The notes below the pieces were generated by a model. That model was not told the DNA's origin. It was given only the letters and a program-made list of their open reading frames with translations, and did not search any database. Below are positions 30,637 through 44,372 of a stretch of 64,000 nucleotides of DNA, one piece after another; position 1 is the first letter of the stretch; every line of letters starts with the position of its first letter. This stretch comes from Nitrospira sp. (GTDB taxonomy: Bacteria; Nitrospirota; Nitrospiria; Nitrospirales; Nitrospiraceae), in assembly GCA_025934915.1 (NCBI GenBank), contig JAICWG010000003.1, forward strand, positions 885 through 64,884, read 5' to 3'. Made by a program: the position numbers and the translations under genes.

Positions 30637-31146
30637 TCATACGGTTGGCTTGCGCAACTCCGATAGGGCCTCGAGAATTTCCGCCGGACGCGGCGGGCAG
30701 CCGGGGATACGGATATCCACGGGGATATGCCGTTCCACAGGCCCGGTCACTGCATAGCTGTTTTTGAACATGCCGCAGTCGATCGCACAGTCGCCGAGCG
30801 CAATGACGATTTTCGGGTCAGGTGTTTGCTTGTGCACATCTTTCAACGCTCGCTCCATGTTGACGGTGACCGGCCCCGTCACCACCAATGCATCGGCATG
30901 GCGCGGCGAGGCTGCGATGTGAATGCCGAATCGTTCGGCATCGTACACAGGATTCAAGAGCGCATTCATTTCCATCTCACAGGCGTTGCAGGAGCCGGTA
31001 TCTACTTCACGGATCGCGAGCGACCGTTTGAAGAGTTTAGTTTTGTCCTTGGCCTCCTGGATAATTGGTAGCGCAGGCTTCTCCGCTCTTCGATACTGGC
31101 CCGTCACAACCCCGATCTTCAAACTCTTTTTGATGATACGGAACAT
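30637..31146 (-). CDS. hyfI: Ehr/Hyf small subunit (NuoB-like, Fe-S)
   Basis: GSCNACE, ASPRHADALVVTGPVT, GDCA, IPGCPP. All four Fe-S Cys are present. Confidence 0.9.
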   Translation of the reverse strand: MFRIIKKSLKIGVVTGQYRRAEKPALPIIQEAKDKTKLFKRSLAIREVDTGSCNACEMEMNALLNPVYDAERFGIHIAASPRHADALVVTGPVTVNMERALKDVHKQTPDPKIVIALGDCAIDCGMFKNSYAVTGPVERHIPVDIRIPGCPPRPAEILEALSELRKPTV

Positions 31147-31156
31147 GTTCGGCCTC

Positions 31157-32749
31157 CTACAGATCGTTTCCAGCGTATGAGAGGTTGAAGCTTTTGTTGA
31201 TGAGAGGAAAGTCCGGGATGATATTCCCCAGTGCCGCCCATTGAATCGCGGGCCAATTCACGAACGATGGGTCGCGAACTTTGCAACGATGAATCCGGCC
31301 ACCTTCTCCCGCCATCACCATATAAAGGATTTCCCCCCGCCAACCTTCGACCGCTGACAGCGTCCAGTCGCCTGGATTCGGTGAGCAACTTGGTTCATTT
31401 GCGACCGGACCATCCGGAATCTTGCCGAGAATTTCACGGATGAGGCGAATGGATTCATGGATCTCATCGCCACGAACGCGCAATCTGGCCCGCACGTCGC
31501 CGTAGCGATACAGAGCTACGGCGACGGGTAGTTCATCATAGGCAGCGAATGGGCGATCGCGCCTCAGATCACAATCCCTACCCGATGCCCGTCCCACGAC
31601 GCCCATCACGGCATGATCCCACGCCGTTTGCTCATTGAGGATTCCCGTCGTTTCCAGGCGATCGGTAAGGGAGGCGTTCGCAAAAATGATGGCCCCCACC
31701 TCGGAAAAGTCCGGTTGGATTCGGTTCAGTTCATCGACAAGGTCGGTGAGTTGGCGGTTCTCGATGTCTCGAGTCACCCCTCCGACCCGGAGGACATCCC
31801 GCAGGAACCGTGAACCTGTGAGCCGATCATTGAGCTGCATGATCCGCTCCTTCATCCGACCACAATGCGCATGGGCGAGCGCGTAAGCTGTGTCATTGCA
31901 CATGGCGCCGATGTCGCCGAGATGATTGTACAGTCGTTCCAGCTCCAAAAAGAGAGAACGAAGGTATCTGGCGCGCCGAGGCACTTGGAGGTTCAGAAGC
32001 GTTTCAACCGCCTGGCAATAAGCGAGACTGTGCCCTACCGTTGTGTCCCCGGACACGCGTTCGGCCAACGGTACCGCCCCGATCAGCATCTGCTGCTCGA
32101 AAAGCTTTTCTACGCCGCGGTGTTTCCAAAAATGGTGCAGCTCGAGCTGCATGATCGGTTCGCCGGCCACAGAAAACCGAAAATGTCCGGACTCGATGAT
32201 CCCAGCGTGGATGGGTCCCACCGGCACCTCAAACACCCCTTCTCCTTCGATACGCCGGAAGTGATGCTCACCCTGTTGTCTGCCCAGCACTCGGTCCCAG
32301 GGAAATTCTTTTCTGAGCGGGTGCATTCCTTTCGGCCAATGCTCGTGCCGGACCAGACGTCGCAGGTCCGGGTGCCCTTGGGGAATCAATCCGAACATGT
32401 CGCGAATCTCTCGCTCATACCACTTGGCGGCATGAATGTGCGGCGTAATAGAAGGAAACAGCCGCTCGTTGCCTGAGAGTTCAATGGACAACACCACCCA
32501 GTAGTGAGACACCTCCAGAGTGAACAGGTAGTGAAGCCCATAGGCGTCACGAACAGGGCGATGGTCACAGGCCCAGATGAGTGTCAGCCGGCCGCGCAAG
32601 TTCGGTTGGGTATGCAGATAGCGAGTGATCGCCGGAAGTAGGTCCTTAGGAACCTGGAAATGCGAAGATTCCCCACAGACCGGGTCACCCTGCACAATGG
32701 CCGGGAACGTGGCTTTAAGCAAGTCGTCATAGGGCCTCGCCTCTGTCAT
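31157..32749 (-). CDS. hyfG: Ehr/Hyf large subunit (NuoCD-like) lacking Ni-binding cysteines
   Basis: NuoC part WYEREIRDMFG..PQGHPD; NuoD part GPIHAGIIESGHFRF. L1 site reads ERVSGD (no CxxC); L2 site reads DFPLINKSFNLSY (no CxxC). Confidence 0.9.
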   Translation of the reverse strand: MTEARPYDDLLKATFPAIVQGDPVCGESSHFQVPKDLLPAITRYLHTQPNLRGRLTLIWACDHRPVRDAYGLHYLFTLEVSHYWVVLSIELSGNERLFPSITPHIHAAKWYEREIRDMFGLIPQGHPDLRRLVRHEHWPKGMHPLRKEFPWDRVLGRQQGEHHFRRIEGEGVFEVPVGPIHAGIIESGHFRFSVAGEPIMQLELHHFWKHRGVEKLFEQQMLIGAVPLAERVSGDTTVGHSLAYCQAVETLLNLQVPRRARYLRSLFLELERLYNHLGDIGAMCNDTAYALAHAHCGRMKERIMQLNDRLTGSRFLRDVLRVGGVTRDIENRQLTDLVDELNRIQPDFSEVGAIIFANASLTDRLETTGILNEQTAWDHAVMGVVGRASGRDCDLRRDRPFAAYDELPVAVALYRYGDVRARLRVRGDEIHESIRLIREILGKIPDGPVANEPSCSPNPGDWTLSAVEGWRGEILYMVMAGEGGRIHRCKVRDPSFVNWPAIQWAALGNIIPDFPLINKSFNLSYAGNDL

Positions 32750-32761
32750 GACCGTCCACTC

Positions 32762-41954: not shown

Positions 41955-43375
41955 GATCCCACACCAACTTTGTGTGGTTGACTGATCGCTATCGGGAATT
42001 GTGTCACCACTGTCGTCCCAGCTCCAGGCGCACTTACAACCTGAATTGTACCGCGATGATCCTGCATAATCCGGTATGCTATGGCAAGACCAAGACCAGT
42101 GCCGCTCGACTTGGTCGTATAGAAGGGTTCAAACAGATGGTTGAGTTGCTCCTTCGCGATCCCGACGCCGCTATCCTTCACGGTAATCTCTACCCAGTCT
42201 TTCCCTTCAGCCGCTCGTTGCACCGCTGAAATCTGACAGTGTCCGCCGTTCGGCATGGCATGAAACGCATTGACGATGATGTTGATCAATACTTGACTGA
42301 TCTGGGTTGCATCGCCCAGGACAGGCAGTAATTGCTCATCCATCACCCGTTCGAGTCGAATCCCGCGTTCCTCCGCCTCGAAACGCATCAACGTCATGAT
42401 GTGGTCGATCAGTGTCTCTACATCTACTTCGTGCAAACCAACAGATCCCGGGTGGGCAAATTTCATGAAATTATCGAGAATCCCCGAAAGCCTTCGGCAT
42501 TCGGCGTTCACGACACCCAAGTACCGTGCCCCTGTTTCTGCTAATGTTCCACTTTCCTTAAGTTCTTCTTCCAGAAGATGGAGGTTCAGATCCATGGCAC
42601 TCAAGGGGTTTCGCAGCTCGTGCGCTACCCCCGCAGATAGGGTGTGCAACGCCGCTAACTTTTCTGCGATACGGACTCGTCGTTCGAGTTCTAACCATTC
42701 TGAGACGTCCTGCGCCTGCAGGATCACCCCCGCCGGTTTCTTATCGTCCCCTGTGAGCTCTGCTGTACTCACGCGAATTGTCCTCGGGCTTAGGTCTCCG
42801 CATTCGTAGAGGAAGTCCTTCTGATTCACATGGCGGTGCTCTTTCAACGCCTCGTCGAGTATCCGGCGGATCGGGTCTTCTTCGGGGAACACGACGTCAT
42901 AGCTTATCCCCAGTAACTCCGATGAGGCGCGATTCAACACCGCTTCAGCTGTGGGATTCATCGCGCTGATGATGCCTCCCTGGTTAATCGTAAGCACCCC
43001 CGTTGGAATACTGTGTAGAATATTCCGCGCCAGCCCCTTCACTTCTTCTAGGGTTTTTCGGGCAGCGTCGTAGTGAAGAAACGTGATGACTGCGGCAATA
43101 CCGATCGAACTTACTAAAAAGATAAGAAGTGTCTCGACGATCAGATCACTGCGCGACTGCCAGAGGGCATGGACCAATTCCGTGGGGATATTCTCGCCTT
43201 CGGTGAAACCACGAAGGAGGAGCGTTTTTCGTTCCAGGCTGAAAAGCAAAATGACGGAGACGACCAAAGCGAAGACCAGGAGCACGGAAGCGACCAACCG
43301 ATAGGGAACCTTTCTGAAGAGCGTCGTTTCTGGGATGGGTCTGAACATCGCAATGTCACATGGGAGCGCACACAA
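41951..43375 (-). CDS. NtrB/PilS-type sensor histidine kinase (2 TM, PAS); alternative ATG 43348
   Basis: AGVAHELRNPL, QVLINIIVNA, DSGVGI, PFYTTKSSGTGLGL. Confidence 0.93.
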   Translation of the reverse strand: MCALPCDIAMFRPIPETTLFRKVPYRLVASVLLVFALVVSVILLFSLERKTLLLRGFTEGENIPTELVHALWQSRSDLIVETLLIFLVSSIGIAAVITFLHYDAARKTLEEVKGLARNILHSIPTGVLTINQGGIISAMNPTAEAVLNRASSELLGISYDVVFPEEDPIRRILDEALKEHRHVNQKDFLYECGDLSPRTIRVSTAELTGDDKKPAGVILQAQDVSEWLELERRVRIAEKLAALHTLSAGVAHELRNPLSAMDLNLHLLEEELKESGTLAETGARYLGVVNAECRRLSGILDNFMKFAHPGSVGLHEVDVETLIDHIMTLMRFEAEERGIRLERVMDEQLLPVLGDATQISQVLINIIVNAFHAMPNGGHCQISAVQRAAEGKDWVEITVKDSGVGIAKEQLNHLFEPFYTTKSSGTGLGLAIAYRIMQDHRGTIQVVSAPGAGTTVVTQFPIAISQPHKVGVGS

Positions 43376-43553
43376 TCAGCATGCTACCACGCACAAGGTC
43401 TCCTGTGTACCGAGCTCGATCCACAGCGGGACCCGCTTAAAGACAATATCTTCCCCTTTGCTTGATCTTCAGTCTTTGTTCCGTTTATTGTGGCTGCTGT
43501 GAAGCTGGCCGTGCCGTCGGGCCGAAGCAATTCTATAGGCGAGGAGTGATGCA

Positions 43554-44372
43554 GTGACGCAGCAAGCGCGTGAAGTCGATATGACACAATATCGAATCCG
43601 ACAGGAGCCGTTTTACGCGGAGGTCTGTGGGGAGATCGGCCTGTTCACCATTGCCGCCGAGAGGAAACTGCCCGTTATGCTGAAGGGGCCGACCGGCTGC
43701 GGGAAAACACGTTTTGTTCAATACATGGCGTACAAGCTCGGGCGGCCGTTGATCACTGTCGCGTGTCACGAAGATCTCACGGCATCCGACTTGGTGGGCC
43801 GTTACCTCCTGAAGGGGCAGGATACCGTCTGGATGGATGGGCCGTTGACCGCCGGAGTGAAGCATGGGGCCATTGTCTATCTCGACGAGGTTGTGGAAGC
43901 GAGAAAGGACACGACCGTCATCATCCATCCTCTCAGCGACGACCGACGAGTGCTCCCGATCGAGAAAAAAGGCCAGATTGTGGAGGCCGCCGACGAGTTC
44001 ATGCTGGTGATCTCCTACAATCCCGGTTATCAGAGCGTCCTCAAAGATCTGAAGCAAAGTACGAAACAGCGATTCATGGCGATTGAATTCGATTACCCCG
44101 CGCCGGACATCGAAACGATGGTGGTTCAGCGTGAAGCGGGGGTGGAGCCTGCGATCGCCGGACGGCTTGTCAAGCTCGGTCAAAAGGTCCGCAACCTGAG
44201 AAACCACGGATTGGAGGAGGGAGTCAGCACCAGACTCCTGATCTACGCCGGTACCTTGATGAAGCAAGGCGTACCGCCCGAGCGGGCCTGTGATGTGGCC
44301 GTTGCCCGTCCGATCACGGATGATTCGGACATGCAACGCGCGATACTTGAATTCGTCAAAGCGATTTTTTGA
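43554..44372 (+). CDS. cbbQ: CbbQ/NirQ/NorQ-family MoxR AAA+ ATPase
   Basis: [67 protein letters not shown]. Confidence 0.92.

Follow-up and report, generated by a model that had tools for sequence, protein, structure and literature searches.

What does a membrane complex of hydrogenase type do when the ligands of its nickel site are gone, and is the copy found in Nitrospira a new system? The question is raised by a 64,000-nucleotide stretch of a Nitrospira sp. genome (assembly GCA_025934915.1, contig JAICWG010000003.1, positions 885 to 64,884; hereafter the window), in which a string of genes is packed tightly on the minus strand at 30637-43375. The locus is the Nitrospira version of a known nickel-free hydrogenase-like membrane complex, termed Ehr or, in rhizobia, Hyq. 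Complexes of this family are widespread (Nitrospirota, Geobacter, rhizobia, and candidate phyla) and stand between hydrogenases and complex I in evolution, and the question of their substrate is two decades old. We consider it probable that the locus as a whole encodes a conditionally expressed, ferredoxin-level redox-driven ion pump in a sigma-54-controlled operon. Its structural core adds nothing new, but the conserved operon context in Nitrospiraceae is a modest and useful addition: a family-specific front end, composed of a two-component system, a sigma-54 promoter, a tetratricopeptide repeat (TPR) protein, a cupredoxin, and optional genes resembling subunits of 2-oxoacid:ferredoxin oxidoreductase (OFOR), appears to be undescribed.

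The six structural genes, of hyfBCEFGI type, are intact and occupy 30637-37963:

30637-31146, minus strand: EhrS, HyfI-like small subunit of the NuoB family, 169 aa (Pfam Oxidored_q6, E 1.6e-35), with four Cys for one [4Fe-4S] cluster.
31157-32749, minus strand: EhrL, HyfG-like large subunit, a NuoC-NuoD fusion of 530 aa, with neither the Ni-Fe cysteines nor the quinone tyrosine of complex I.
32762-34300, minus strand: EhrD, HyfF-like antiporter-like subunit, 512 aa (Proton_antipo_M, E 2.8e-56; hydrogenase 4 subunit F models).
34312-34977, minus strand: EhrC, HyfE-like membrane subunit, 221 aa from the ATG at 34977, as in the 221-aa ortholog (NCBIfam hydrogenase 4 membrane subunit, E 1.6e-29).
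34982-35932, minus strand: EhrB, HyfC-like subunit of the NuoH family, 316 aa (Pfam NADHdh, E 9.3e-47).
35936-37963, minus strand: EhrA, HyfB-like antiporter-like subunit of NuoL type, 675 aa (NCBIfam hydrogenase 4 subunit B, 749 bits, above the cut-off).

Only 3-12 nt separate these genes, whose products measure 675/316/221/512/530/169 aa from EhrA to EhrS, compared with 675/316/221/511/530/171 aa in the orthologs of Candidatus Nitrospira nitrosa (Ca. N. nitrosa). Pfam and NCBIfam searches returned NuoB/Oxidored_q6, Complex1_30kDa plus 49kDa, Proton_antipo_M (twice), NADHdh, and the hydrogenase-4 subunit E, B, and F models. Relatives of EhrL number in the thousands; the best 120 clusters are 72-89% identical to it, and all of their source names are Nitrospira or its parent taxa. 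As read directly from the translations, EhrD holds IE...GTKVGLVPMHSWLPDAY and EhrA holds WE...GTKAGIVPLHVWLPYAH; WE...GTKAGIVPLHVWLP (EhrA) and IE...GTKVGLVPMHSWLP (EhrD) may correspond to the conserved Glu of transmembrane helix (TM) 5 and the Lys of TM7 in NuoL/M/N.

The metal sites were assessed by aligning the window subunits with HycE, HyfG, HycG, and HyfI of E. coli MG1655. In EhrL, the L1 motif of HycE (RVCGICGFAHS) has become RVSGDTTVGHS and the L2 motif (DPCYSCTDR) has become NLSYAGNDL, so that all four Ni-Fe cysteines are lost, and the protein ends at the L2 motif, with no C-terminal extension for a HycI-type protease. By comparison, a true group 4 hydrogenase of the same phylum (L123) keeps its cysteines (ERICGICGFVH, DPCFSCTE). 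The small subunit EhrS retains the pattern CxxC...GDC...GCPP, its residues C53, C56, C120, and C150 being invariant in 42 homologs. The earlier note on this DNA had described an intact hyfB-C-E-F-G-I set, a large subunit with no CxxC at either Ni site, and a small subunit with its four Fe-S cysteines, and had concluded that the complex is of the Ni-less Ehr type and not a canonical [NiFe] hydrogenase; all of this holds, the L1 and L2 motifs of the latter being absent.

Loss of the nickel ligands has not been followed by erosion of the surrounding protein. The former active-site segments are among the best-conserved parts of EhrL from Nitrospira to Rhizobium, which indicates that the pocket is under selection and not decaying. 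Two replacement motifs characterize the family, R(V/I)SGD(T/S)(T/S) and, at the C-terminus, DFPLxNKSFNxSY(A/S)GxDL; with the first widened to R(V/I/T)SGD(T/S)(T/S), the pair is shared by the window, 40 Nitrospirota loci, and a Rhizobium HyqG. The 19 fetched Nitrospirota loci from outside Nitrospiraceae carry six-gene Ehr clusters that are all Ni-less and all contain both motifs. One of these 19 (L115, G168:C2:1641321-1660739) holds two complete six-gene clusters in tandem, about 8 kb apart, and match positions indicate the same arrangement in G213, G217, G203, G149, and G102; the pocket variants of such tandem clusters differ (SGTSSFAH with NLSYSGTDM versus SGDTTVAH with NQSYSGNDL).

Searches with E. 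coli proteins (tblastn) found no HyfH/HycF, HyfA/HycB, HycI, or HycH in the locus, no HycI or HycH anywhere in the genome, and no hyp or fdhF homologs on the contig of the window, in agreement with the earlier observation that hyp and formate dehydrogenase genes are missing nearby. Across the whole genome, matches to HycF/HyfH were confined to four complex I loci (C166, C130, C181, and C44). Another contig (C72, 0.4-6.9 kb) encodes a genuine [NiFe] large subunit of 449 aa (RICGIC...DPCISCAAH) adjoining hypF, hypA, hypC, hypD, and hypE. The organism is therefore able to mature Ni-Fe sites, and the Ni-less state of Ehr does not stem from missing maturation genes.

That the core is known follows from the literature on Nitrospira. 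A hyfBCEFGI operon was reported in 2017 (PMC5596200); the missing CxxC motifs were noted in 2020 (PMC7305129), in 2023, when the complex was named Ehr (PMC10284858), and in 2025 (PMC12542776); and a comparative study of 2025 puts the share of Nitrospirales genomes with Ehr at about half and gives its function as unknown (PMC12342949). The complexes covered by these five papers are orthologous to that of the window, with EhrL 71-89% identical, the same hyfBCEFGI order, and both CxxC motifs missing; no difference in the core was seen. In the passages of these papers that were consulted, no mention was found of a two-component system, a sigma-54 promoter, TPR, cupredoxin, or OFOR-like genes, or of the decay of OFOR-like genes. 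A second precedent is hyqRBCEFGI of Azorhizobium caulinodans, whose transcription depends on NifA and sigma-54 (PMC2650096, PMC3357923). Hyq shares with Nitrospira Ehr the six structural genes, the absence of both CxxC motifs, the four small-subunit Fe-S cysteines, and sigma-54 dependence, and the kinship was confirmed on a Rhizobium plasmid copy, where HyqG is about 40% identical and carries GRTSGDSTV together with the C-terminal DFPLCNKSFNCSYSGHDL. Hyq differs in being NifA-activated within the nif regulon, in having a small helix-turn-helix gene (hyqR) in front and no NtrC/kinase pair, and, when set against the Nitrospiraceae loci, in lacking cupredoxin, TPR, and OFOR-like genes. A sigma-54-controlled member of the family having been known since 2009, a Ni-less Hyf-like complex under sigma-54 is not new as a kind, and the proposal of a candidate new system does not survive.

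Other relatives help to delimit the complex. Geobacter sulfurreducens Ehr (EhrA-1, EhrC, EhrL, EhrS; GSU0739-45; PMC7894505), likened here by its description, is of the same Ni-less, Ech-related type with the same subunit set; its proteins were seen in proteomes, were more abundant with formate, and were discussed together with formate dehydrogenase (PMC7894505). E. coli Hyf and Hyc resemble the window complex in identity (32-34% for the large subunit and 43-47% for the small subunit), in B-C-E-F-G-I gene order, and in their control by a sigma-54 activator (FhlA/HyfR). Unlike them, the window complex has no Ni-Fe site, no C-terminal extension, no HyfA/HycB, HyfH/HycF, or HyfD, and no FdhF partner, and its genome lacks HycI. 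Complex I and cyanobacterial NDH-1 share NuoB, NuoCD, NuoH, and NuoL/M-like modules and the ligands of the N2-type cluster with Ehr, which is without NuoI, NuoE, NuoF, NuoG, NuoA, NuoJ, and NuoK. The four NuoD paralogs of the genome all contain DR(L/I/V)DY, and three contain the THG loop, which lies outside the span of the C181 fragment; at these complex I quinone positions EhrL instead has ERVSGD and a hydrogenase-type loop, ESGHFR.

The new information lies upstream of ehrA, where the following features stand in order of transcription:

41951-43375, minus strand: membrane histidine kinase with PAS, HisKA, and HATPase_c; the probable true start at ATG 43348 would give 465 aa, the length of the ortholog.
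40596-41954, minus strand: NtrC-type sigma-54 activator, 452 aa (Sigma54_activat, E 6e-73, with Response_reg and HTH_8; GAFTGA).
40484-40538, no strand assigned: two activator-type palindromes (upstream activating sequences, UAS), UAS2 TGCAAGAATTGCA at 40484-40496 (perfect) and UAS1 at 40526-40538, with columns conserved in a 14-locus alignment.
40362-40377, minus strand: predicted sigma-54 promoter (-24/-12), TGGCACtctccCTGCA, the same element being found in 14 loci and rpoN in the genome.
39993-40283, minus strand: small TPR protein, 96 aa, first gene after the promoter (TPR_17, E 2.6e-7), found in all loci linked to a two-component system.
39586-39900, minus strand: conserved small gene, 104 aa, 72% identical to nn92 (a 92-aa gene of Ca. 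N. nitrosa).
39246-39593, minus strand: chimeric remnant of 115 aa, OFOR-alpha-like at the N-terminus and OFOR-epsilon-like at the C-terminus, in frame (BLASTP).
38303-39232, minus strand: exported cupredoxin fused to a CarboxypepD_reg-like beta-sandwich, 309 aa (ligands H137, C202, H205, and M208; CGFHAYM).
38112-38231, minus strand: conserved micro-open reading frame (micro-ORF) between the cupredoxin gene and hyfB, with a strong Shine-Dalgarno sequence AGGAGGG at 38225-38231 and a GTG start at 38218.

These elements were mapped, with the window proteins, onto 19 orthologous Ehr loci of Nitrospiraceae, a divergent paralogous cluster (L026), and the Ca. N. nitrosa locus. Two forms were recognized. 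The short form, present in N. defluvii, runs kinase, NtrC-type regulator, TPR, cupredoxin, and ehrABCDLS; the long form, present in Ca. N. nitrosa, carries extra genes between the regulator and the cupredoxin, namely a lipoprotein-like gene, an OFOR-epsilon-like gene (PF02552, E 5e-36), the TPR gene, small ORFs, a gene for a 480-aa protein, and a second epsilon-like gene (E 5e-39). The 104-aa small gene, which has no Pfam match, has its orthologs in long-form loci and in L027 and L028. The cupredoxin gene lies immediately upstream of hyfB in 15 of the 19 loci, with only 20-90 nt from its stop codon to hyfB in relatives; the two-component system was found in 15 of 18 assessable loci, and OFOR-like genes in seven. 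Neither cupredoxin nor two-component system occurs in the Ehr loci of the 19 other Nitrospirota from outside the family. As a separate observation, most long-form loci (L010, L012-L015, L025, L030-L032, and L045) carry a further antiporter-like gene between ehrC and ehrD, at about 45% identity to EhrD; the long-form locus of Ca. N. nitrosa lacks it, and complexes with this addition would have three pump modules, not two.

Regulation by sigma-54 is suggested by position as well as by sequence. The motif TGGCAC-N5-YTGCA occurs once in the 64 kb of the window, at 40362-40377, separated from the TPR start by 79 nt, and an element (T/C/A)GGCA(C/T)-N5-xTGCA sits 170-300 nt past the stop codon of the regulator in 14 loci of different genera. 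An alignment of these 14 intergenic regions contains only three conserved blocks, the promoter and two TGCAA-N3-TTGCA palindromes, which in the window are 42 bp apart from centre to centre, with UAS2, the nearer one, about 110 bp ahead of the promoter. The likely activator stands beside them: its orthologs, 76-92% identical, hold the same position in relatives, and rpoN is present in the genome. The kinase, as read from its sequence, has two predicted transmembrane helices with a short periplasmic loop between them. It is proposed that this regulator and the PAS kinase switch the promoter on through the two upstream palindromes, in response to a signal that the kinase would sense; with a promoter of sigma-54 type switched by the adjacent pair, expression of ehr is predicted to be conditional.

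Downstream of this promoter, the gaps between operon genes are 3-92 nt, and a scan of 37964-40362 found no terminator-like site and no sigma-70-like promoter before hyfB. An Rfam search of 30000-45500 gave no match at E up to 1, and thus no known riboswitch or small RNA in the gaps. A candidate second sigma-54 element before hyfB (TGGCAGGCTTGGAAAGCA at about 38196) was discarded for its wrong spacing. It is accordingly well predicted that TPR, small genes, cupredoxin, micro-ORF, and ehrABCDLS are co-transcribed as one operon, in which the Ehr genes would be the distal part of a unit starting at TPR. The micro-ORF belongs to the conserved operon context of Nitrospiraceae. In five relatives, its product is about 37 aa long and contains a single hydrophobic helix (MKDNETRAWQAWKxTCYTxLVIALLxTxVHVxxG), and its substitutions among relatives fall mostly at third codon positions; it could be an unannotated seventh Ehr subunit. 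In the window it is cut to 25 aa by a 1-bp deletion near 38154/38155, which may reflect either a true frameshift or a fault of the assembly.

The comparison of neighbourhoods also settles several features listed by the earlier note. An exported C-x2-H-x2-M protein, TPR and small genes, a sigma-54 promoter, an NtrC/kinase pair, and a divergent cbbQ gene were all found again; sigma-54 control is strengthened by the positional conservation of promoter and palindromes, and the cupredoxin, TPR, and two-component genes are syntenic with Ehr in relatives. Synteny failed for cbbQ, whose link to Ehr is refuted as a conserved association. The description of the module as self-contained also has to be given up, the operon of relatives containing extra OFOR-like genes that have decayed here.

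That decay can be followed in the chimeric remnant. Its residues 7-52 correspond to residues 4-49 of nn480, the 480-aa protein of Ca. N. nitrosa (67% identity, BLASTP), and its residues 48-102 to residues 138-192 of nn192 (73% identity, BLASTP), so that the first ~50 codons of the alpha-like gene are joined to the last ~55 codons of the second epsilon-like gene. Intact alpha-like and epsilon-like genes being present in relatives, the remnant is, judged from these alignments, the scar of a roughly 1.9-kb deletion, and its junction at a short similar stretch (IAQ.LI.K / NIALKII) suggests that the deletion was microhomology-mediated. The first epsilon-like gene is absent from the window, and the two closest relatives (cupredoxin 94% identical) keep even less of the OFOR-like genes, which suggests a lineage that is shedding the OFOR-like module while keeping Ehr, cupredoxin, and switch intact. 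The genome of the window is thus a natural reduced variant, with OFOR-like genes lost and the micro-ORF frameshifted, useful for comparison but a poor model strain.

The intact OFOR-like genes resemble parts of a known enzyme. The epsilon-like proteins nn230 and nn192 (PF02552) are 48-61% identical to the epsilon subunits of the genome's own five-subunit OFOR clusters, one on C297 (order epsilon-alpha-beta-gamma-delta) and a second on C64. A structure model of nn480, built from 12 orthologs (pLDDT 81.7), resembles the alpha subunit of a two-subunit OFOR (6n2n_A, E 3e-26, TMq 0.71). The long-form loci contain only the two epsilon-like genes and the alpha-like gene; the catalytic beta subunit (thiamine pyrophosphate/[4Fe-4S]) and the delta (ferredoxin) subunit were not found in them. 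One locus outside Nitrospiraceae (L121, G097:C1:2526051-2545349, at 3876-5542) contains two OFOR-epsilon-like genes that stand alone (PF02552, E about 1e-40) and flank a 113-aa gene. This pair was considered as independent support for an OFOR link and set aside as too weak, lying about 3 kb upstream of Ehr with three housekeeping genes of the opposite strand intervening.

The mechanism that we propose combines these elements. The complex would be a six-subunit, complex-I-like membrane module in which EhrA and EhrD, both antiporter-like, act as pumps next to the NuoH-like and HyfE-like membrane subunits, and in which a cytoplasmic NuoCD-like/NuoB-like pair carries one [4Fe-4S] cluster and, where the Ni-Fe site would be, a remodelled but strongly conserved pocket. 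A one-electron redox reaction at ferredoxin level, on the cytoplasmic side at EhrS/EhrL, would be coupled to the movement of H+ or Na+ through EhrA/EhrD, or the reverse. The OFOR-alpha-like and epsilon-like genes in the operon of many genera would suggest that the partner lies in ferredoxin/2-oxoacid metabolism; the cupredoxin, for its part, would be co-regulated periplasmic cargo and not the direct electron donor of Ehr. In this specific form, which ties ion translocation to a one-electron reaction at EhrS/EhrL and includes conditional expression as well as OFOR-derived accessories in many genera, the proposal is put forward tentatively, its chances being somewhat below even. The practical value of the conserved operon context lies in the handles it offers, namely a defined sigma-54 promoter, operator, and regulator for finding the inducing signal and a blue-copper protein whose co-transcription is predicted, while the OFOR-subunit paralogs of many genera hint at ferredoxin-level chemistry tied to CO2 fixation.

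Several points weigh against a conditionally expressed redox pump of this kind. Ehr is confined to about half of the family (38 of 81 genomes and 24 of 39 genera in our tally), and three of its loci (L007, L017, and L018) lack both the two-component system and the cupredoxin. The locus contains no ferredoxin subunit of NuoI/HyfH type through which electrons could enter EhrS. A complex-I-like quinone site is not supported for EhrL, which has neither the quinone-binding Tyr nor the THG loop. Short-form loci lack the OFOR-like genes, and in the window these have decayed, which makes them dispensable for Ehr. The promoter match taken alone is not significant, with 0.16 matches expected by chance and one match reached in 16 of 100 shuffles, and the co-transcription and sigma-54 dependence of the ehr operon are themselves predictions. 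Finally, the genetics of Azorhizobium Hyq (PMC2650096, PMC3357923) conflicts with a purely non-hydrogenase reading by crediting H2 uptake and evolution to a homologous complex.

A narrower version of the OFOR connection would make Nitrospiraceae Ehr the membrane energy-coupling partner of an OFOR-type module. The alpha-like and epsilon-like proteins would dock an OFOR or a ferredoxin onto the exposed EhrS cluster, thereby replacing NuoI/HyfH, and the proton-motive force could drive electrons up to ferredoxin level and so supply the reductive carboxylations of the reverse tricarboxylic acid cycle in an aerobic nitrite oxidizer. We regard this as rather unlikely; if true, it would provide a function for the orphan Ehr family and a second source of low-potential electrons in Nitrospira, besides the 2M-type complex I.

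Alternatively, Ehr might be a redox-independent, Mrp-like cation/proton antiporter serving pH or salt homeostasis, with the hydrogenase-like arm kept as a structural or regulatory relic. The two antiporter-like subunits with their putative TM5 Glu and TM7 Lys motifs and the lack of any encoded electron-input subunit would fit such a device, and sigma-54/two-component control would suit a stress response. Nevertheless, the invariance of the four [4Fe-4S] cysteines of EhrS in all 42 sequences and the standing of the former active-site segments as the most conserved parts of EhrL across phyla argue for a working redox or ligand site, and make a pure antiporter unlikely.

Third, Ehr could be a Ni-less 'endo-hydrogenase' like Azorhizobium Hyq, turning over H2 at the EhrL pocket with electrons passing to or from the membrane quinone. 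Membership in the same family as rhizobial HyqBCEFGI, with six genes and motifs in common, and a beta1-beta2 loop of EhrL that is more like that of HycE than that of NuoD both favor this possibility, as does the phenotype of hyq deletion mutants, whose operon is NifA/sigma-54 dependent and which evolve about 10-fold more H2 in diazotrophic culture (PMC2650096, PMC3357923). This H2-recycling phenotype is reported for Hyq only, and according to its authors no cell-free H2 activity of Hyq has been shown (PMC3357923). In the Nitrospira complex, all four Ni-Fe cysteines are gone, and Cys491 and Cys497, which Hyq keeps and which are two of the three residues reported as conserved in the HyqG family, are replaced by Ile and Leu in the EhrL of the window and of Nitrospiraceae. 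Additionally, the genome encodes a separate, genuine [NiFe] hydrogenase with hyp genes, and H2 did not induce Ehr in N. moscoviensis (as cited in PMC12342949 and PMC12542776). H2 turnover by Ehr therefore seems very improbable, and the statement that the complex is not a hydrogenase likely stands, with Hyq genetics in rhizobia as the argument for H2 turnover that remains on the other side.

Equally doubtful is the view, put forward in the earlier note, that the periplasmic blue-copper protein gives electrons to Ehr or takes them from it, and thereby marks the substrate of the complex. The protein itself is, on the evidence of its ligands and of a structure model, supported as a type-1 blue-copper cupredoxin. 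Its true start is M66 of the long ORF (MRYCVSTMLAIIIGTVSPAWC/YEV), which gives a typical signal peptide, and the CarboxypepD_reg-like sandwich comes after the cupredoxin domain (Pfam, E 1.8e-9). Among 62 members (26-77% identity), D133, C202, and H205 are invariant and H137, M208, N131, C60, and C112 are conserved at >=90%; library-wide, 1,231 cluster representatives match it at E up to 1e-10 (HMMER). The AlphaFold model (pLDDT 88.9, pTM 0.87) resembles copper-bound cupredoxins and has 4hcf, 5fc9, amicyanin, and auracyanin as its top Foldseek matches (probability 1.0, TMt 0.6-0.72); a PDB sequence search with the protein returned nothing useful.

Conserved type-1 ligands, a model with the expected fold, and a gene that immediately precedes hyfB in most Ehr loci of Nitrospiraceae, often by 20-90 nt, would suit a partner of Ehr. 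Against this, the cupredoxin carries an N-terminal export signal, whereas homology to complex I and group 4 hydrogenases places EhrS and EhrL in the cytoplasm, and the locus encodes no route for electrons across the membrane; the protein is also missing from Ehr clusters outside Nitrospiraceae as well as from L007, L017, L018, and L022. Phylogeny is equally unhelpful to the idea. Species-representative genomes scanned with a 12-sequence cupredoxin alignment yielded 78 related loci, all in Nitrospiraceae, and about 70% of the copies, which are roughly 75% identical, belong to a different operon with its own sigma-54 activator, encoding a 1,600-aa multicopper-oxidase-domain protein, the cupredoxin, and FGE-sulfatase proteins. 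Ehr-linked and oxidase-linked cupredoxins are intermixed in the tree, and the Ehr-linked copies do not form one clade; a single origin for them is not supported, with at least four label changes forced by well-supported branches, in a tree that has short internal branches and in which recombination between paralogs is possible. A direct electron-transfer role is very unlikely.

The oxidase-linked set deserves a remark of its own. The genome contains further cupredoxin paralogs on C22, C141, and C281; those on C22 (23.5-30.3 kb) and C141 (1.6-6.9 kb), as well as one in N. moscoviensis (L001), follow a 1,300-1,650-aa multicopper-oxidase-domain protein (Cu-oxidase_3, E 2.6e-12) and are followed by several FGE-sulfatase-domain proteins. 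The set is apparently a widespread, uncharacterised periplasmic copper system of Nitrospira.

As for CbbQ (AAA_5 plus CbbQ_C), encoded divergently from the two-component genes and proposed earlier as a link to inorganic carbon, a role as functional partner or assembly ATPase of Ehr is hardly credible, its adjacency in the window and in the two nearest relatives (L027 and L028) being outweighed by its single-copy presence in 76 of 81 family genomes, with or without Ehr (38 of 81), its distance of 0.6-3.5 Mb from ehrL on closed chromosomes (G001, G024, G040, G055, G061, G072, and G077), and its occurrence in none of the 19 other sampled Nitrospiraceae Ehr loci. No CbbO/NorD-type or von Willebrand partner lies beside it, the genes downstream encoding a DUF167 protein and a glycine-zipper lipoprotein; the adjacency is a local accident, and CbbQ is an unrelated neighbour. 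At the opposite end of the locus, a PAS-GAF-HisKA-HATPase-REC hybrid kinase (28235-30547, plus strand) is convergent on ehrS, a layout kept no more widely than in Ca. N. nitrosa and the two closest relatives.

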